In this document: piece by piece, positions 50 through 9,880 of the stretch
Numbering within the stretch: the first letter of the stretch is position 1
Layout: each line of letters starts with the position of its first letter
DNA from: a virus
DNA: 16,142 nt
Strand: one strand, 5' to 3'
Virus genome (UHGV): UHGV-0156413
Notes under the pieces: generated by a model
The model's input: the letters and a program-made list of their open reading frames with translations, nothing else
Databases searched by the model: none
Told to the model about the DNA's origin: nothing
Position numbers and translations under genes: made by a program

Positions 50-1063
50 TTACTCTACTGTGGACACTGTGTGGACACTCTCGGCCTCAGTACCACCTCT
101 TAGCGGATTAAGAGAAATGGCGTCCTGAAGGTACTCTGGCGCAAAATGAGCGTAAACCATAGTTTGCTCAATCCGCGTGTGACCTAGTATCCGTTGTAGC
201 GTGATAATACTTCCTCCATTAATCATGAAATGAGTGGCAAAGCTGTGCCTTAGTGCATGTGTGGCTTGCCCCATTGGCAAATCCGGTTTTATTGCTTTCA
301 TTGTTCGTCTGAAGCGAGGGTAATCAGCATCAGGGAATAAAAAACCTCGTTTGTTATCCGCGATCATTTTGGCAACAGCCTCTGAGATCGGGACGGTGCG
401 TGGTTTGTTTGTTTTCGTTTTAACAAACGTGACGCGGTTATGGATGATATTTTCTGCTTTCAAACGAGCTGCTTCTCCCCAACGTGCTCCAGTACTCAGG
501 CAAAGAATCGCAATCTTTTTGTTGTCGCCGTCAAGAGCAGCAAGCAGTAAGGCAATTTCTTCCTGCGTGAGATAGCCTGTGTCTGGTTTTTCCTCCTTAA
601 GCCTTTTTGTCCCTCTGATAGGGTGCTCACCAAAGAATAACTCCGCTTCAATCAGGGCTGTAAACATGCCGCTAATACATGTTAAATCACGATTGATACT
701 CGAAGGTTTAATACCCTGACTTCTTCGGGTGGCGCAGTACTGGCTGATAAGCGATTTCGTAATTTGAAATGCGCATGGGTCATTCGTTATTTTTGTGAAG
801 ATTTCAATTTTTCCAAGATTAGATTTCCCATGCTCTTCGTGTTTACCCTTTAAATCCCACCAGATCTGTGTCAGCTCCGACAGACGTCGCTTGTCTGTTG
901 GTTTTGATAGCCATTCTTTATTGTGGTGGTTGTACAACGTGTATTTCTCGAAAGCGACAGCTTCGCTTTTCTTATCAAACTTCCTACGGATGCGTTTTCC
1001 ATTACGTCCAGTAGGGCGGATGTCCACTTCATATCGACCATCATCGAGTTTTTTGATTGCCAT
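50..1063 (-). CDS. int: Tyrosine site-specific integrase (P2 Int-like)
   Basis: 337-aa ORF; C-terminal region HALRHSFATHFMINGG...LGHTRIEQTMVYAH fits the tyrosine-recombinase catalytic signature. Lies downstream of the repressor on the same strand, as in P2. No att core recognised in nt 1-49. Confidence 0.93.
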   Translation of the reverse strand: MAIKKLDDGRYEVDIRPTGRNGKRIRRKFDKKSEAVAFEKYTLYNHHNKEWLSKPTDKRRLSELTQIWWDLKGKHEEHGKSNLGKIEIFTKITNDPCAFQITKSLISQYCATRRSQGIKPSSINRDLTCISGMFTALIEAELFFGEHPIRGTKRLKEEKPDTGYLTQEEIALLLAALDGDNKKIAILCLSTGARWGEAARLKAENIIHNRVTFVKTKTNKPRTVPISEAVAKMIADNKRGFLFPDADYPRFRRTMKAIKPDLPMGQATHALRHSFATHFMINGGSIITLQRILGHTRIEQTMVYAHFAPEYLQDAISLNPLRGGTEAESVHTVSTVE

Positions 1064-3632: not shown

Positions 3633-5898
3633 AGCCTCCGGGCGTTGTGTCCCTCCGTCAGCATTTGCCGCAGGCACCGGTAAGACGTTTACCGGTGCTT
3701 ATGCATGGAACGCGCCACGCGAGGCCGTCGGGCGCGAAAGACCCCTTACACGTGACGAGATGCGTCAGGTGCAAGGTGTTTTATCCACGATTAACCGCCT
3801 GCCTTACTTTTTGCGCTCGCTGTTTACTTCACGCTATGACTACATCCGGCGCAATAAAAGCCCGGTGCACGGGTTTTATTTCCTCACATCCACTTTTCAG
3901 CGTCGTTTATGGCCGCGCATTGAGCGTGTGAATCAGCGCCATGAAATGAACACCGACGCGTCGTTACTGTTTCTGGCAGAGCGTGACCACTATGCGCGCC
4001 TGCCTGGAATGAATGACAAGGAGCTGAAAAAGTTTGCTGCCCGTATCTCATCGCAGCTTTTCATGATGTATGAGGAACTCAGCGATGCCTGGGTGGATGC
4101 GCATGGCGAAAAAGAATCGCTGTTTACGGATGAGGCGCAGGCTCACCTGTATGGTCATGTTGCTGGCGCTGCACGTGCTTTCAATATTTCCCCTCTCTAC
4201 TGGAAAAAATACCGTAAAGGGCAGATGACCACGAGGCAGGCATATTCTGCCATTGCCCGTCTGTTTAACGATGAGTGGTGGACTCATCAGCTTAAAGGCC
4301 AGCGTATGCGCTGGCATGAGGCGTTACTGATTGCTGTCGGGGAGGTCAATAAAGACCGTTCTCCTTATGCCAGTAAACATGCCATTCGTGATGTGCGCGC
4401 GCGCCGCCAGGCAAATCTGGAATTTCTTAAATCGTGTGACCTTGAAAACAGGGAAACCGGCGAACGCATCGACCTTATCAGTAAGGTTATGGGCAGTATT
4501 TCTAATCCAGAAATTCGCCGGATGGAGCTGATGAACACCATTGCCGGTATTGAGCGTTACGCCGCCGCAGAGGGTGATGTGGGGATGTTTATCACGCTGA
4601 CCGCGCCGTCAAAGTATCACCCGACACGTCAGGTCGGAAAAGGCGAAAGTAAAGCCGTCCAGCTAAATCACGGCTGGAACGATGAGGCATTTAATCCAAA
4701 GGATGCGCAGCGTTATCTCTGCCGCATCTGGAGCCTGATGCGCACGGCATTCAAGGATAATGATTTACAGGTCTACGGTTTGCGTGTCGTCGAGCCACAC
4801 CACGACGGAACGCCGCACTGGCATATGATGCTTTTTTGTAATCCACGCCAGCGTAACCAGATTATTGAAATCATGCGTCGCTACGCGCTCAAAGAGGATG
4901 GCGACGAAAGAGGAGCTGCGCGAAACCGTTTTCAGGCAAAACATCTTAACCGGGGCGGTGCTGCGGGATATATCGCGAAATACATTTCAAAAAACATCGA
5001 CGGCTATGCACTGGATGGTCAGCTCGATAACGACACCGGCAGGCCGCTGAAAGACACTGCAGCGGCTGTTACCGCATGGGCGTCAACGTGGCGCATCCCG
5101 CAATTTAAAACGGTTGGCCTGCCGACAATGGGGGCTTACCGTGAACTACGCAAATTGCCTCGCGGCGTCAGCATTGCTGATGAGTTTGACGAACGCGTTG
5201 AGGCTGCACGTGCCGCCGCAGACAGTGGTGATTTTGCGTTGTATATCAGCGCACAGGGTGGGGCAAATGTTCCGCGTGATTGCCAGACTGTCAGAGTCGC
5301 CCGTAGCCCGTCGGATGACGTTAACGAGTACGAGGAAGAAGTCGAGAGAGTGGTCGGCATTTACGCGCCGCATCTCGGCGCGCGTCATATTCATATCACC
5401 AGAACGACGGACTGGCGCATTGTGCCGAAAGTTCCGGTCGTTGAGCCTTTGACTTTAAAAAGCGGCATCGCCGCGCCTCGGAGTCCTGTCAATAACTGTG
5501 GAAAGCTCACCGGTGGTGATACTTCGTTACCGGCTCCCACACCTTCTGAGCACGCCGCAGCAGTGCTTAATCTGGTTGATGACGGTGTTATCGAATGGAA
5601 TGACACGGAGGTCGTGAGGGCGCTCAGGGGGGCATTAAAACACGACCTGAGAACACCAAATCGTCAGCAAAGAAACGGAAGCCCGTTAAAACCACATGAA
5701 ATTGCACCATCGGCCAGACTGACCCGGTCGGAAAGAATGCAAATTACCCGTATCCGCGTTGACCTTGCTCAGAACGGTATCAGGCCGCAGCGATGGGAGC
5801 TTGAGGCGCTGGCGCGTGGCGCGACCGTAAATTATTACGGGAAATCTTTCAATTATCAGGTCGCTGATGAGTGGCCTGGATTTTTGTTACCCATTTGA
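3622..5898 (+). CDS. A: Rolling-circle replication initiator (P2 gpA-like HUH endonuclease)
   Basis: Start taken at ATG 3622 (MAVKASG...) rather than the upstream ORF-track start. Contains HUH-like motif PHWHMMLF and tyrosine motif GYIAKYISKNIDGY typical of Rep/gpA nickases. Confidence 0.9.
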   Translation: MAVKASGRCVPPSAFAAGTGKTFTGAYAWNAPREAVGRERPLTRDEMRQVQGVLSTINRLPYFLRSLFTSRYDYIRRNKSPVHGFYFLTSTFQRRLWPRIERVNQRHEMNTDASLLFLAERDHYARLPGMNDKELKKFAARISSQLFMMYEELSDAWVDAHGEKESLFTDEAQAHLYGHVAGAARAFNISPLYWKKYRKGQMTTRQAYSAIARLFNDEWWTHQLKGQRMRWHEALLIAVGEVNKDRSPYASKHAIRDVRARRQANLEFLKSCDLENRETGERIDLISKVMGSISNPEIRRMELMNTIAGIERYAAAEGDVGMFITLTAPSKYHPTRQVGKGESKAVQLNHGWNDEAFNPKDAQRYLCRIWSLMRTAFKDNDLQVYGLRVVEPHHDGTPHWHMMLFCNPRQRNQIIEIMRRYALKEDGDERGAARNRFQAKHLNRGGAAGYIAKYISKNIDGYALDGQLDNDTGRPLKDTAAAVTAWASTWRIPQFKTVGLPTMGAYRELRKLPRGVSIADEFDERVEAARAAADSGDFALYISAQGGANVPRDCQTVRVARSPSDDVNEYEEEVERVVGIYAPHLGARHIHITRTTDWRIVPKVPVVEPLTLKSGIAAPRSPVNNCGKLTGGDTSLPAPTPSEHAAAVLNLVDDGVIEWNDTEVVRALRGALKHDLRTPNRQQRNGSPLKPHEIAPSARLTRSERMQITRIRVDLAQNGIRPQRWELEALARGATVNYYGKSFNYQVADEWPGFLLPI

Positions 5899-6158
5899 GT
5901 GAAAATGCAGCGTGATTTTATATGCCTTTGAATGGATTATGCGAAGCGCCTCTAAGGCAGATGAGGAGCAATAGCATGCTGAAGTAGAAGGCTAAATTGT
6001 ATTGAATCGCTAGCATGTAATTTAAGGCAGCTATTTGATTCGAGTCATAAAAGAGCATCTATTTCGGCTAATAAAACCATTGCGAGTGACCTTTTGTCGA
6101 AGCATAATTCATCTCGAGCGAAGTCTTGCTAGTCTTTCATCGGAATGATGACAGGCGC

Positions 6159-6188
6159 AAAAAAACCACCCTGGCAGGTGGTTTTTTT
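6159..6188. terminator. Bidirectional rho-independent terminator
   Basis: A7-CCACC (6159-6170), loop CTGGCA, GGTGG-T7 (6177-6188): GC stem flanked by an A-run and a T-run, so a U-tract follows the hairpin in either orientation. Lies downstream of A and just 3' of the minus-strand small ORF. Confidence 0.6.
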
Positions 6189-6200
6189 GTTTGAAGCATA

Positions 6201-6314
6201 CTAAAGAATAATACTTACATGGATATTACTGACGTTTACTGACAAACCACTTGGACTACCATATGGATAGCCAAAGAGGGCCAGAACGAGAATGCAGTAA
6301 TAGCACTTCTTCAT
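6201..6314 (-). CDS. Putative small hydrophobic peptide (37 aa; not in the ORF track)
   Basis: Minus-strand ATG at 6314-6312 preceded by CAGGAGGAGAT; translation MKKCYYCILVLALFGYPYGSPSGLSVNVSNIHVSIIL then stop; terminator immediately 3'. No homology assessed. Confidence 0.3.
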   Translation of the reverse strand: MKKCYYCILVLALFGYPYGSPSGLSVNVSNIHVSIIL

Positions 6315-6884
6315 ATCTCCTCCTGTAAGCAGAGGGCAATTTCCGCCGATATATGCGCTTCTAAGGCGGAGTTAATATTTAGCGAAGTCTTGCCCTGAAA
6401 TAATGCTCTGTTTAAACGCAAAGTGATCTGGCATATCACCGAACAGAGAGCCTGAACAACACAACATATAGTATGTCGTTGTTTCTGGTTGCATTTTATG
6501 TTGTGTAATACTGGTTTTGCATCAAGGATGTTTGAGCTTTTTTTGATATAGCTCAAAGTAAAAAGCAGGGACTACGGATGATAAGGTATTGAAAGCAATG
6601 TAAATTTTTTAAAGTTATTGGTGGCTAAAAAATGCACGATTTCAATGTGGCGGACTTAAATAAGCAATTAAAAAAGTCATAAATATCACTAAAATCATGG
6701 TGTTACGTTTTTTGTGGGAGCTGCGGTGACGCTTAAGTTGATTTGTCATTAAATAAGCCGTGCATGCAACAAGTGAATGTTTTTGCATGCGTCGGGGATG
6801 CCCGTTCCCGCTGCTTGCGGTCAGAGCTGGTGCGGATCCATAGTATCTATGCAACTGCATTAAAACCGCCACATGAAGCGGGCG

Positions 6885-6903
6885 GGCGAGGCGGGGAAAG
6901 CAC
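6885..6903. other. Putative cos site (19-nt cohesive-end sequence of P2-type phages)
   Basis: GGCGAGGCGGGGAAAGCAC at 6885-6903 matches the P2 cohesive-end sequence as I recall it; sits between A and Q as expected for a circularly permuted prophage. Memory-based, not searched. Confidence 0.55.
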
Positions 6904-6939
6904 CGCGCGTAAGATAAACAGAAGAGCGAAGGATTATGG

Positions 6940-6968
6940 TTGAGTATTTGTGTTTTTGTACATATGAT
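6940..6968 (+). promoter_or_regulatory. Candidate sigma70 promoter for the cargo operon
   Basis: TTGAGT (6940-6945), 17-bp spacer, TATGAT (6963-6968); followed by inverted repeat GTGTTT...AAACAC (about 6975-6997) and a GGAG Shine-Dalgarno before ATG 7010. Confidence 0.3.
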
Positions 6969-7009
6969 AAAAAGGTGTTTACGCTTAAAAACACATCAAA
7001 GGAGATGAT

Positions 7010-8311
7010 ATGGAAAATATAAAGATTGATAAGTTTCTCACTATTCAAAAAGTTGATATTCCTCTTAAGAAAGTGAATATATTTATTGGGCCTCAGGCAC
7101 AGGGGAAAAGTGTCATTGCAAAGCTAATAAAATATTTTAAAGATTATCCTATGGATATACTACGAGCTTCAACAGAGGGTAAAACTAAAAGAGATATATT
7201 GAAGGAGCAAAAGAATAAGTTTAGTAAAATTTTCCCTCAGCAGTATTGGGCTGATGATGAGTTTTTTATTGAGTATAGTAATAAGCACTATTGGGTGCGG
7301 ATTACTAATCGAAAAAATAGCAAAGGGTCATTGAAAATAGCCCTTTCTGAGAATTTAACGAAGACGATTGCTAAACTTCGTTTGATTGTACGAAAGGATT
7401 TAGATGAAAATATTGAGAATTCACTTGCAGAAAGCGTTACGAGAAGGCGTAAACGCGGAATTGAACATGAATTGCGAGTATGTCTTTCTCTAGGATTGTT
7501 TTCAGAACCAGAAACAAAGCTTGAAAGTGTTTTTTATATCCCCGCAGGGCGCTCTTTTTTTGCTAATTTGCAAAAAAATGTGTTTTCATTTTTATCCAGT
7601 AGTATAGAAATTGACTACTTTTTGACAGAGTTTGGTTCTCTGTATGAACAAACAAAAAAATTATTTAACCAAGATTACATGATTAGGATGCTTAGGGGGG
7701 CTGTGCCTCAACATGTTAATAAACTTGTGGAGGAGTTGATTTGCGGAAAATATATAACAGAAAAGGGTGAGGATTTTATTCGTCATGCTGCTAAGAAGAC
7801 GAATCTTAACAACTCGAGCTCAGGGCAGCAAGAAGCGTTACCAATGGCTTTAATGTTATCCTCATGGCCGTATTTACAGTCTATGACTAGTAAGAGTTTT
7901 ATTATTGAGGAGCCGGAGGCTCATCTGTTTCCTTCTGCCCAAGCAAAAGTTGTATCTTTAATAGCCTCAGCGTATAACCAAGCAGAAAGCTATTGTAGCT
8001 ATACAATAACAACACATAGTCCATATATTCTAAGTGCCTTCAATAATTTGATTCAAGCAGGTAATGCATTGAAGTGTATTAAGGGCAAGAATAATACCGA
8101 TATCGAACGCTTATATAAGCTTGTTCCAGAGTCTCAAATTATTGATTTTGATGATGTGACAGCTTATATGGTTAATGCTGGGAAAGTGACGGAAATACTG
8201 GATTCCGAACTAAATATATTAGATGCGAATGAAATAGATAGGATTTCCTCTATTTTTTCAGAGACTTTTGATGCATTGATTGATATCGAATATTCGGCTA
8301 CTGTGAATTAG
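7010..8311 (+). CDS. ABC-type ATPase of the AAA_21/OLD-like family (candidate defence ATPase)
   Basis: 433 aa. Walker A GPQAQGKS (aa 27-34), signature-like SSGQQ (aa 269-273), Walker B/D-loop FIIEEPEAHLFP (aa 297-308), H-loop TTHSP (aa 334-338). AT-rich codon usage unlike the phage backbone. Confidence 0.85.
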   Translation: MENIKIDKFLTIQKVDIPLKKVNIFIGPQAQGKSVIAKLIKYFKDYPMDILRASTEGKTKRDILKEQKNKFSKIFPQQYWADDEFFIEYSNKHYWVRITNRKNSKGSLKIALSENLTKTIAKLRLIVRKDLDENIENSLAESVTRRRKRGIEHELRVCLSLGLFSEPETKLESVFYIPAGRSFFANLQKNVFSFLSSSIEIDYFLTEFGSLYEQTKKLFNQDYMIRMLRGAVPQHVNKLVEELICGKYITEKGEDFIRHAAKKTNLNNSSSGQQEALPMALMLSSWPYLQSMTSKSFIIEEPEAHLFPSAQAKVVSLIASAYNQAESYCSYTITTHSPYILSAFNNLIQAGNALKCIKGKNNTDIERLYKLVPESQIIDFDDVTAYMVNAGKVTEILDSELNILDANEIDRISSIFSETFDALIDIEYSATVN

Positions 8312-8319
8312 GTGATTGA

Positions 8320-8757
8320 ATGTGTAAAAATTGCAAAGGAAAAACAAAAAATAAAATCATTGTGCTATCTGATAAAGGAACGTCAACGCAATTGTCAGTC
8401 ACAAATGATAATGAGTTGGAAGTTGAGCATAAGTTAATAGATGGTTGCGCTATTGTTGTTGGAGAGCGGTGTGATCATTATTTGAAGATTTATAACAATC
8501 AGGATGTTTCACATCTTTTTGTTGAACTTAAAGGAAGTGATGTTGAAAAAGCTGTTAAACAGATAGTGACAACTTTAAAGTCAGGTGTGATTAATGTAGG
8601 TGCTAAAGAAAAAAAACATGGTGCTATTGTTAGCACTAGGAATCCGCTAAACTCACCAGAAACCAATAGGTTAAAGAAGAAAATTCTTTTGAGTGACGGA
8701 GTGAATTTGCATTTCTATAAAATGAAGGCGCAGCAAAAAATAACTTCTTTTACATGA
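8320..8757 (+). CDS. Small partner protein, possible PD-(D/E)xK-like nuclease or effector (hypothetical)
   Basis: 145 aa; starts 8 bp after the ATPase stop with AGGTGA upstream. N-terminal CxxC (C2, C5); candidate catalytic core D52 ... E69-L-K71 (ERCDH ... FVELKG). Assignment is tentative. Confidence 0.7.
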   Translation: MCKNCKGKTKNKIIVLSDKGTSTQLSVTNDNELEVEHKLIDGCAIVVGERCDHYLKIYNNQDVSHLFVELKGSDVEKAVKQIVTTLKSGVINVGAKEKKHGAIVSTRNPLNSPETNRLKKKILLSDGVNLHFYKMKAQQKITSFT

Positions 8758-8770
8758 AGTGTTCTCTTGT

Positions 8771-8794
8771 ACAGGCATGCATTTGCATGCCTGT
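8771..8794. terminator. Perfect palindrome between convergent cargo operon and Q (terminator or protein-binding site)
   Basis: ACAGGCATGCA tt TGCATGCCTGT (11-bp arms); a short T-run (ATCTTTTA) follows about 8 nt downstream on the plus strand. Confidence 0.35.
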
Positions 8795-8860
8795 CGTGTA
8801 ATCTTTTACACTATATTTGTGTTGGTTCTAATCTTGTTATGTGTTTGTTTCGGTGATGGG

Positions 8861-9880
8861 TCATAATGAATAAGTTCGAAAGCGAAATACATCTTCGCCA
8901 ACCCAACAGTTAATTTCTTTACATCGCTCTTGGAGGAACGTTAGCTCGTTGCGTACAAAGACTTGTGCTGCTTTTGTTACATCTCCAAATCCTCCTGTGT
9001 TGTTGGGCATCATTCCTATCATTTGGGGAGGCACGCGATGAGCACTCATTAGATCTTCAGCACTTGCTTTTTTGATATTAAAAAAATCGTCCTTCGTTGC
9101 CACTTCACTGAGCGGGATAATTTTAATGCCGTCGGCTTTCCCCTGCGGGGCATAGAGAAACAGATTTTTAAAGTTATTGCGGCCTTTCGACTTAACCATG
9201 TTTTCGCGAAGCATTTCGATATCGTTGCGATCCTGCACGGCATCAGTGACGTACATGATGTATCCGGCATGAGCGCCGTTTTCGTAATACTTGCGGCGGA
9301 ACAGCGTGGCCGACTCATTCAGCCAGGCAGAGTTAAGGGCGCTGAGATATTCGGGCAGGCCGTACAGCTCCTGATTAATATCCGGCTCCAGCAGGTGAAA
9401 CACGGAACCGGGCGCGAAGGCTGTCGGCTCGTTGAAGGACGGCACCCACCAGTAAACATCCTCTTCCACACCACGGCGGGTATATTTTGCCGGTGAGGTT
9501 TCCAGCCTGATAACTTTACCGGTGGTGCTGTAACGCTTTTCCAGAAACGCATTACCGAACACCAGAAAATCCAGCACAAAGCGGCTGAAATCCTGCTGGG
9601 AAAGCCACGGATGCGGGATAAATGTCGAGGCCAGAATATTGCGTTTGACGTAAATCGGCGAGCTGTGATGCACGGCAGCACGCAGGCTTTTTGCCAGACC
9701 GGTAAAGCTGACCGGCGGCTCATACCATCTGCCGTTACTGATGCACTCGACGTAATCCAGAATGTCACGGCGGTCGAGTACCGGCACCGGCTCACCAAAG
9801 GTGAATGCTTCCATTTTCGGGGCGCTGGCGGTGATTGTTTTTGCCGCAGGTCGCGGTGTTTTCCCTTTTTTCTTGCTCAT
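8861..9880 (-). CDS. Q: Portal protein (P2 gpQ-like)
   Basis: 339-aa ORF immediately downstream of and overlapping the large-terminase stop (ATGA); conserved P2 Q-P arrangement; size close to P2 Q as recalled. Confidence 0.9.
   Translation of the reverse strand: MSKKKGKTPRPAAKTITASAPKMEAFTFGEPVPVLDRRDILDYVECISNGRWYEPPVSFTGLAKSLRAAVHHSSPIYVKRNILASTFIPHPWLSQQDFSRFVLDFLVFGNAFLEKRYSTTGKVIRLETSPAKYTRRGVEEDVYWWVPSFNEPTAFAPGSVFHLLEPDINQELYGLPEYLSALNSAWLNESATLFRRKYYENGAHAGYIMYVTDAVQDRNDIEMLRENMVKSKGRNNFKNLFLYAPQGKADGIKIIPLSEVATKDDFFNIKKASAEDLMSAHRVPPQMIGMMPNNTGGFGDVTKAAQVFVRNELTFLQERCKEINCWVGEDVFRFRTYSL

Follow-up and report, generated by a model that had tools for sequence, protein, structure and literature searches.

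Several described defence systems combine an ATP-binding cassette (ABC) ATPase with a nuclease, and a two-gene operon in the UHGV virus genome UHGV-0156413 deserves comparison with them. The whole stretch of 16,142 nucleotides (nt) that was analysed is hereafter called the window; it carries a P2-like prophage, and the operon in question consists of an ATPase gene followed on the same strand, after an intergenic distance of 8 nt, by the gene of a small putative nuclease. The two products are named A and B in the following, and the phage gene of the same letter is always given as replication gene A.

7010-8311, plus strand: gene A, ATPase, 433 amino acids, ATG start
8320-8757, plus strand: gene B, putative nuclease, 145 amino acids, ATG start

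Both reading frames appear exactly so in the list of open reading frames (ORFs), as the initial annotation of this DNA had reported, and to judge from sequence comparison they are real genes, because full-length homologues of both form adjacent pairs in many phyla. Our analysis revealed that the pair is already catalogued, as system #81 of Rousset et al. 2022 and as a relative of the candidate PDC-M29, that it is uncharacterised, and that it belongs to the well-known kind of ABC ATPase with nuclease. We consider it a candidate, and a likely one, for a defence or exclusion system.

Comparison with described systems

HEC-02, an ABC ATPase with a NERD nuclease, protects experimentally, and both of its genes are needed (Payne et al. 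2024). It is the closest validated counterpart of our pair in logic, as it likewise joins an ABC ATPase to a separate nuclease of the PD-(D/E)xK superfamily with a (D/E/Q)xK motif. However, window B has no match to HEC-02B or to Pfam NERD even at E <= 1, it is smaller and bears three invariant cysteines, and HEC-02A lies outside the top 25 PADLOC matches of A. PARIS provides the mechanistic template for the ATPase-gated release of an effector (PMC11464382); it too combines an AAA_15/AAA_21 ATPase with a separate nuclease effector, and it is also found in the cos-adjacent hotspots of P2 and P4. Its effector AriB is a DUF4435/TOPRIM protein, whereas window B has less than half the size of AriB and matches neither DUF4435, TOPRIM nor AriB in Pfam and PADLOC at E <= 1. 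The match of A to the PADLOC models named AriA is probably generic, because these models equal the Pfam AAA_15 and AAA_21 profiles in length.

Septu is another ATPase with a nuclease, and its PtuA is the best solved structural match to A (Foldseek E 3e-9 to 1e-7); yet PtuB is an HNH nuclease, window B has no HNH or PtuB match, and A matches the PtuA models at 5e-11 or weaker only. P2 Old, the class 2 OLD nucleases and Gabija GajA contain ABC ATPases from the same broad clade as A, and old sits in the P2 hotspot that also houses the window cassette. In these proteins, however, the ATPase continues into a fused TOPRIM domain at its C-terminus, whereas the window encodes its nuclease candidate as a distinct protein of another fold, and the matches of OLD and GajA to A cover the ATPase core only. 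As for PD-T4-4 (Vassallo et al. 2022), it also has two genes and an ABC ATPase, and PD-T4-4_A matches the C-terminal half of A at 1e-16; however, this match is partial (residues 234-426) and B has no match to PD-T4-4_B. The initial annotation had likened the architecture to PARIS, Septu and OLD with a much smaller partner lacking TOPRIM and HNH signatures, and this picture holds, as no TOPRIM, HNH or DUF4435 model matched B. The profile searches it had proposed, run with Pfam and PADLOC, gave no confident full-length matches of both proteins to a characterised system. Its statement that it could not place the pair in a named system from sequence alone is right for characterised systems, none of which fits, and needs amendment for the catalogues, where the pair stands as Rousset #81 and is related to PDC-M29.

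Relation to PDC-M29

Rousset et al. 2022 list the pair in their Table S5B as system #81 ('AAA_15/AAA_21'), present in 45 of 18,150 P2 loci. The PDCs are 145 candidates, selected for being embedded in BREX, DISARM or type I restriction-modification loci (Payne et al. 2024, 10.1101/2024.01.29.577857), and DefensePredictor put them aside as unvalidated. When A is compared with PADLOC, PDC-M29A is the best of 91 matches (2.3e-31, 107.5 bits, in three stretches), and the best matches are all defence ATPases, namely PDC-M29A, PDC-M56A, PD-T4-4_A, NsnB, GajA and PtuA. B matches PDC-M29B only, and weakly (2.4e-4, 19.3 bits, profile positions 39-119 of 164), which we suspect to be too weak for an automatic PADLOC call. 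Among ten distant relatives of B, nine match PDC-M29B alone, with E-values of 1e-6 to 1e-11 over almost the full length, and the homology of B and PDC-M29B at the superfamily level is therefore supported by sequence. Distant relatives of A match PDC-M29A at 1e-20 to 1e-30, with the C-terminal extension included in four of the five tested. Moreover, a pair on a Bacteroides plasmid has an ATPase that is clearly PDC-M29A (2e-37) and a partner 29% identical to window B. From the PDC-M29 matches of the distant relatives and from this Bacteroides pair, the window pair appears to be a diverged clade of the PDC-M29 superfamily. The organisation is alike, with two adjacent genes on the same strand, one for an ABC ATPase and the other for a protein of only about 140-165 amino acids; the setting differs, since PDC-M29 was defined in BREX, DISARM or type I restriction-modification loci and the window pair sits in a P2 prophage.

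On the Bacteroides finegoldii plasmid NZ_OY725969.1 (positions 5848-7411 of our locus L090), a PDC-M29-type ATPase with a 166-amino-acid partner lies within a capsular or O-antigen glycosyltransferase cluster. The start codon of this ATPase, annotated with 358 amino acids, may be miscalled, because the annotated protein begins at position 52 of the PDC-M29A profile.

The ATPase

A matches Pfam AAA_15 at 4e-20 and AAA_21 at 7e-9, which bears out the earlier assignment to the ABC/AAA_21 type, and SMC_N and AAA_23 match as well, while no TOPRIM is matched by Pfam anywhere in its 433 amino acids. In an alignment of 22 homologues with 40-76% identity to A, its catalytic motifs are conserved as follows (the last entry is the extension that comes after them):

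7088-7111, plus strand: Walker A, G27-P-Q-A-Q-G-K33-S34, with G27, Q29, A30, G32, K33 and S34 invariant
7817-7831, plus strand: ABC signature (C-loop), S270-S-G-Q-Q274, invariant
7898-7918, plus strand: Walker B and D-loop, F297-I-I-E300-E301-P-E303, with E300, E301, P302 and E303 invariant
8015-8017, plus strand: H-loop histidine H336, with T335, H336, S337 and P338 invariant
8036-8308, plus strand: family-specific C-terminal extension, residues ~343-433, the part that matches PDC-M29A best

The structure model of A (AlphaFold, AF2) has a predicted local distance difference test score (pLDDT) of 84.9 and a predicted template modelling score (pTM) of 0.87. The nearest solved folds are PtuA (in Septu and retron-Septu complexes), Rad50 and GajA, with template modelling scores of 0.4-0.5 and 10-16% identity, and the sole sequence match in the PDB is the OLD-family protein 6p74 (E 0.006). 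As the Pfam matches, the invariant motifs, the model and the solved-fold matches agree, A is an SMC/Rad50-like ABC ATPase, of a type common in defence and not close to any solved one. With Walker A, signature, Walker B and H-loop all intact in the sequence, ATP-sandwich dimers or larger oligomers are predicted. In the C-terminal part, residues 291-427 of A align to positions 276-407 of the PDC-M29A profile of 410.

The small partner

B has no significant match in Pfam, NCBIfam, PHROGs or the PDB sequences. A word-seeded search with B found 18 clusters only, and an exhaustive profile search, with representatives taken at 50% identity, gave 2,343, of which 1,028 had E <= 1e-10; the best 150 of the 2,343 have mostly 130-160 amino acids. 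In a set of 5.8 billion proteins, all 99 profile matches of B (99/99) are labelled 'hypothetical' and have no Pfam domain. The family is nevertheless strictly conserved at certain positions. In the B sequences of 78 genome loci, C5, N29, C51, D52, E69, L70, K71, Q81 and P109 are invariant, and D41 (97%), C43 and G72 (97-99%) are nearly so; among 104 broad representatives with a mean identity of about 27%, D41, C51, E69, K71 and Q81 remain invariant and D52 is kept in at least 90%. On the window these residues are found at the following places:

8473-8532, plus strand: putative catalytic core of B, with D52 (8473-8475) and E69-L-K71 (8524-8532) on two adjacent predicted strands
8440-8442 and 8560-8562, plus strand: D41 and Q81, flanking the core
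8332-8334, 8446-8448 and 8470-8472, plus strand: conserved cysteines C5, C43 and C51

The residues that had been singled out at first sight, the Walker A lysine K33 of A and E69 and K71 of B, are thus all invariant, and the partner described then as a putative nuclease turns out to have a conserved D...ExK signature. As for the cysteines, C5 is found in 78, C43 in 76 and C51 in 78 of the 78 sequences, and a fourth one, C2, belongs to the enterobacterial clade only, where other clades have D, N, S or E. From this conservation the three cysteines could form a metal site, with C51 beside the putative catalytic D52.

The AF2 model of B is confident (pLDDT 86.4, pTM 0.84), as is that of A, so that the structure prediction proposed beforehand gave good models for both single chains. 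In the model of B, D52 starts the strand 53-59 and E69-x-K71 ends the adjacent strand 62-69, which are followed by the helix 75-88, bearing Q81, and the strand 98-105. The overall predicted topology is strand-strand-strand-helix-strand; the model thus shows the strand-strand-helix-strand arrangement typical of the PD-(D/E)xK nuclease core, and its putative catalytic residues lie where they usually do. The fold matches are weak, the top Foldseek ones being BamHI, EcoT38I and FokI at E 0.02-0.1; they are enriched for restriction-endonuclease-like nucleases, and NucS and Mus81/EME1 are among them. Sub-threshold Pfam matches of the relatives of B also cluster on PD-(D/E)xK families (SduA_C, HSDR_N, HSDR_N_2, PDDEXK_9, SfsA, DUF2726). 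Combining the invariant residues, the model topology and these suggestive fold and Pfam matches, we rate B as very probably a minimal nuclease of the PD-(D/E)xK type. It might also be thought that B is a non-enzymatic adaptor or sensor, with A or host factors delivering the output, considering that B has no significant sequence or structure match to a characterised nuclease. However, the conservation of D41, D52, E69, K71 and Q81 at about 27% mean identity (n=104) is the pattern of a catalytic site, and in the predicted topology they occupy the positions known from PD-(D/E)xK enzymes, so that such a role seems most improbable.

The fold matches raise a further alternative, namely that the pair is an accessory of DNA repair or recombination, with a mini Rad50/SbcC-like ATPase and a partner nuclease working on host or phage DNA ends. 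In its favour, the best structural matches of A include Rad50, the fold matches of B include NucS and Mus81/EME1, many distant loci lie amid housekeeping genes, and the cassette adjoins cos, a site where DNA ends are formed. Yet the helices of the modelled A have only some 20-24 residues and form no long Rad50-like coiled coil, the closest sequence relatives of A are defence ATPases and not repair proteins, the low-GC pair is present in a patchy, strain-specific manner (10/5,426 E. coli genomes), and it occupies variable islets as well as the cargo slot of a phage. We therefore regard a repair function as very unlikely.

Coupling of A and B

To describe how the two genes go together, 80 genome loci gathered via A (34-48% identity) were used, of which 78 are assessable; they span cyanobacteria, methanotrophs, Bacteroidota, Pseudomonas, Verrucomicrobiota, Chloroflexota and others. 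B lies directly downstream of A on the same strand in 77 of the 78, mostly with gaps of -4 to +7, and the three loci without a visible B are one contig end, one masked by Ns and one genuine solo ATPase. No third gene recurs near the pair among the 80 loci, the maximum being 8, which comes from local synteny among methanotrophs. The pairwise identities of A and of B are correlated (r = 0.90; Mantel 0 of 999), a correlation that fits the inheritance of A and B as one unit and to which shared phylogeny contributes.

Viral contigs tell which part of A goes with B. The search for B among them used a narrower B alignment as the query, the wide alignment being too divergent, and about 30 distinct A-B pairs were found in IMG/VR. 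There, ATPases that match the A profile through the C-terminal extension have B downstream, except the locus L127 and two loci cut by contig ends, and those that match in the core only never have B downstream. Since the presence of B tracks this extension in the viral contigs, residues ~343-433 of A are the best candidate, on sequence grounds, for the part that couples A to B. In L127 (UViG_2913380516_000003, 5965-7883) a divergent ATPase of the A family, with its extension matched (E 8e-32), is followed by an unrelated 203-amino-acid protein, and this gene in place of B may be an effector swap. An apparent A-B fusion, P0318 (L170, Logan SRR27489462), was rejected as a decayed locus on one 2-kb metagenomic contig; A is there joined just after the H-loop to a B without its N-terminus, and a separate A fragment lies upstream.

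Position beside cos in the A-Q hotspot

The window has the gene order of a P2-like prophage, with the integrase (50-1063, minus strand), C, cox, B and replication gene A, which runs to 5898, and on the right the portal gene Q, the terminase P, and then O, N, M and L. Over 7000-8800 the GC content is 0.33-0.39, compared with 0.50-0.63 in the flanking phage core, in agreement with the AT-rich island described at first. The borders of the cassette and the cos signals are:

6733-6909: cos region common to P2- and P4-like elements; many P2-like phage records match and stop at 6909
6885-6903, plus strand: 19-nt cohesive-end core of cos, GGCGAGGCGGGGAAAGCAC, one exact match in the window
6909-6912: left border of the cassette, where the similarity to other P2-like phages ends
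8861-9880, minus strand: portal gene Q, the right border of the cassette

The 19-mer GGCGAGGCGGGGAAAGCAC is the P2 cohesive end. It is matched exactly in strain 2452 and in phage P2 DC1 as well, with 0 matches expected by chance, and the linear P2-like phage record ON146439.1 terminates at the base equivalent to window 6884. Rousset et al. cloned P4 hotspot sequences, and their constructs contain the same core; the left breakpoint of the cassette lies about 6 nt past this core, as it does in those constructs. The cos core at 6885-6903 therefore places the operon in the cos-to-Q part of the A-Q hotspot and not in its A-to-cos part, whereby the hotspot location proposed in the initial annotation is both borne out and narrowed. 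The cassette occupies the entire cos-to-Q interval, which measures 1,957 base pairs (bp) in the window and about 170 bp in phage 9W. On the right side, the similarity to other P2-like phages picks up again only at about 8880-8940, within the 3' end of Q.

The final ~6-27 codons of Q (8861-8940) diverge from other P2-like phages. As the similarity of Q resumes only upstream of these last codons, the sequence suggests that the recombination which brought in the cassette extended into the final codons of Q.

In E. coli strain 2452 (cos at 4446-4464 of our locus L168) the same operon is placed identically in the cos-to-Q slot. The A-to-cos cargo of that strain is a GNAT acetyltransferase with two hypothetical genes, and that of the window consists of small ORFs only. 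According to the P2 map, old and tin are cargo of the A-to-cos part. Because the window and strain 2452 have the same cos-to-Q operon and different A-to-cos cargo, these data, two examples only, suggest that cos divides the A-Q hotspot into two cargo slots that vary independently.

The closeness to cos may lead one to think of a function for the benefit of the phage that is linked to this site, such as interference with P4 satellites or P2 competitors at packaging, or the exclusion of incoming cos-ended DNA. Indeed the cassette begins about 6 nt past the cohesive-end core, P2 and P4 have cos in common and each carries cargo beside it, and activity against P2 relatives is known for one system of the P2 hotspot. 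However, B proteins of 61-69% identity and hundreds of distant relatives are found in non-phage chromosomal settings, and relatives occur in phyla without P2/P4 elements (cyanobacteria, Bacteroidota, methanotrophs). As relatives live in such contexts and phyla, the function of the pair cannot hinge on its adjacency to cos, and a cos-linked role is highly improbable.

Some other features of the region between replication gene A and the cassette may be recorded here. None of the small ORFs between replication gene A and cos has a PHROGs match. One of them, at 6201-6314 on the minus strand, encodes a hydrophobic protein of 37 amino acids (MKKCYYCILVLALFGYPYG...) behind a strong AGGAGG Shine-Dalgarno sequence; it has neither a RefSeq annotation nor a PHROGs match, and its product may be a small peptide of the membrane or a toxin. 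Directly after it, at 6158-6189, stands a bidirectional terminator with perfect 13-nt arms (CAAAAAAACCACC/GGTGGTTTTTTTG), where the Rfam scan of the cargo region gave its only matches, all sub-threshold. The stretch 5902-6740 has 91-93% identity to the P2 isolate DC1 (OU784750) and to Salmonella phage MET_P1_103_31, and DC1 has about 1.5 kb of additional cargo, two hypothetical genes, inserted inside its counterpart of this stretch. Two inverted repeats contain GCATGC, one being the palindrome after gene B (8771-8794) and the other GCATGCAACAA/TTTTTGCATGC at 6762-6790, which lies in the conserved cos-proximal region and has a counterpart in P4 cos regions.

Distribution and neighbourhood

Of 5,426 complete E. 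coli genomes, 10 carry the operon at >= 99% identity. One carrier is the decayed P2 prophage of E24377A, where the genes are annotated 'AAA family ATPase' and 'hypothetical protein'. No deposited phage has the operon at near identity, and deposited phages and plasmids rarely encode B-like proteins, each of the two sets giving two distant matches. The relatives whose B is 61-69% identical are chromosomal, and those of Serratia form a solo islet amid housekeeping genes. The defence-like neighbours found at distant loci include ThsB, SspB, PD-Lambda-5_B, PDC-S17 and a type II methyltransferase; neighbour matches labelled mad3, LmuB or AriA were discarded, being not members of the A family and apparently generic ABC ATPases.

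In E24377A (L001, NC_009801.1 1007691-1009438) the operon is intact with 99.7% identity, while the prophage around it has a truncated portal gene, fragmented tail genes and an inserted IS21-family element. In Enterobacter hormaechei and Kosakonia sacchari (L083, L084, L088), relatives of the pair with B 66-69% identical lie in a variable islet, bordered by a glycosidase/MFS (major facilitator superfamily) gene pair on one side and, on the other, by a region with HicB, the SymE toxin, an IS3-family transposase, RhuM and the type VI secretion effector pair Hcp-Tlde1.

Such a distribution also bears on whether the pair may be a toxin-antitoxin-like module of addiction or stabilisation, in which B would be a toxic nuclease and A its neutraliser, so that the prophage or islet is retained. 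In Enterobacter and Kosakonia the small, mobile two-gene unit has toxin-antitoxin genes, SymE and HicB, beside it; it stays intact in the decayed E24377A prophage with its truncated Q and inserted IS21, and it is often a solo islet amid housekeeping genes. Nevertheless, a 433-amino-acid ABC ATPase with fully conserved catalytic motifs is atypical of antitoxins, and in the analogous PARIS the loss of either gene is non-toxic; moreover, such a module overlaps in mechanism with abortive-infection defence and is hard to separate from it by sequence. We regard an addiction module as unlikely.

Expression signals

Around the two genes the following signals were detected:

6940-6968, plus strand: candidate sigma-70 promoter TTGAGT-17-TATGAT, 42 nt upstream of the start of A, 9/12 of the consensus
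7000-7004, plus strand: Shine-Dalgarno sequence AGGAG of gene A, five nt before its start
8310-8315, plus strand: Shine-Dalgarno-like AGGTGA ahead of the start of B
8771-8811: palindrome with perfect 11-nt arms (8771-8794) together with a further small hairpin, in the gap where genes B and Q converge

The hairpin 8771-8811 has a minimum free energy of -23.5 kcal/mol with z = -3.85, but a canonical U-tract directly after the stem is absent and the terminator scan made no call there. The palindrome described earlier thus stands, with its perfect arms and strong hairpin, and a terminator remains a plausible reading of it.

Proposed function

Several lines of evidence lead us to favour defence for the pair. 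A low-GC insert fills the cos-to-Q interval of the A-Q hotspot of P2, which is rich in defence systems (Rousset et al.); its distribution is patchy and mobile, over E. coli genomes, strain 2452, chromosomal islets and viral contigs; A resembles defence ATPases and B shows invariant residues of the nuclease type; and A and B are strictly coupled and related to PDC-M29, with HEC-02 as a validated precedent. By analogy, we hold it reasonably likely that the pair is an ATPase-gated nuclease module of defence which works like PARIS, Septu or HEC-02.

In such a scenario the cassette would be a self-contained two-gene cargo of the P2-like prophage, directed against phages or other mobile elements. 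A promoter of its own would keep the operon transcribed in the lysogen even though the early operon is repressed there. A would serve as sensor and gate and would keep B inactive in uninfected cells, probably via its C-terminal extension; a phage-derived trigger would be detected through the variable helical inserts of A, and the binding or hydrolysis of ATP by A would then free or activate B. The latter would cut nucleic acid, more likely DNA, though tRNA or other RNA is possible, and the cleavage would halt the infecting phage directly or by abortive infection.

A number of points weigh against the assignment to defence. The pair is absent from the tested-system lists of Rousset et al. 2022, and Payne et al. 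2024 describe the PDCs, PDC-M29 included, as candidates without experimental test. In the open-access literature that was searched, no paper names PDC-M29 or the RefSeq accessions. P2 hotspots also hold non-defence cargo, for example partition systems and toxins. At the distant loci the neighbours are mostly housekeeping genes, and since only about 10 of the 143 nearest neighbours are defence-like, the association of the wider family with defence islands is weak, as it likewise is for embedded defence candidates in general (Payne et al. 2024). Finally, the region holds 10 promoter-like sites where 9.1 are expected from shuffles; because this count is no higher than in shuffled sequence, the TTGAGT-17-TATGAT site at 6940-6968, though present, is no more than the candidate promoter that the initial annotation called it.

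A more far-reaching proposal, which we put forward tentatively and consider doubtful, joins several of these observations. B would found a class of PD-(D/E)xK effector nucleases of about 140 amino acids, with the catalytic Asp beside a three-Cys metal site and gated by a dedicated C-terminal domain of A; the pair would represent a widespread defence family (>2,300 clusters at 50% identity), whose target or activation logic would set it apart from PARIS, Septu and HEC-02, be it through tRNA cleavage or through metal- or redox-dependent activation, to name examples; and, as a separate matter, the hotspot would fall into two slots, one on each side of cos, that exchange their cargo independently, with a breakpoint within ~6 nt of the cohesive end.

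To sum up, nothing in the pair overturns the current understanding. The cos-to-Q position refines the organisation of the P2 hotspot, which would have two slots around cos, and this is relevant to the cataloguing of prophage cargo. The family of B spreads over Proteobacteria, Cyanobacteria, Bacteroidota and other phyla, and if the function were validated, a widespread and very compact ABC-ATPase/nuclease system would join the defence repertoire and would give the PADLOC candidate PDC-M29 and its relatives their first functional anchor. With an effector of 145 amino acids, its candidate catalytic residues defined, and an ATPase extension that tracks the effector, the pair would offer a tractable model of nuclease gating by ABC ATPases.

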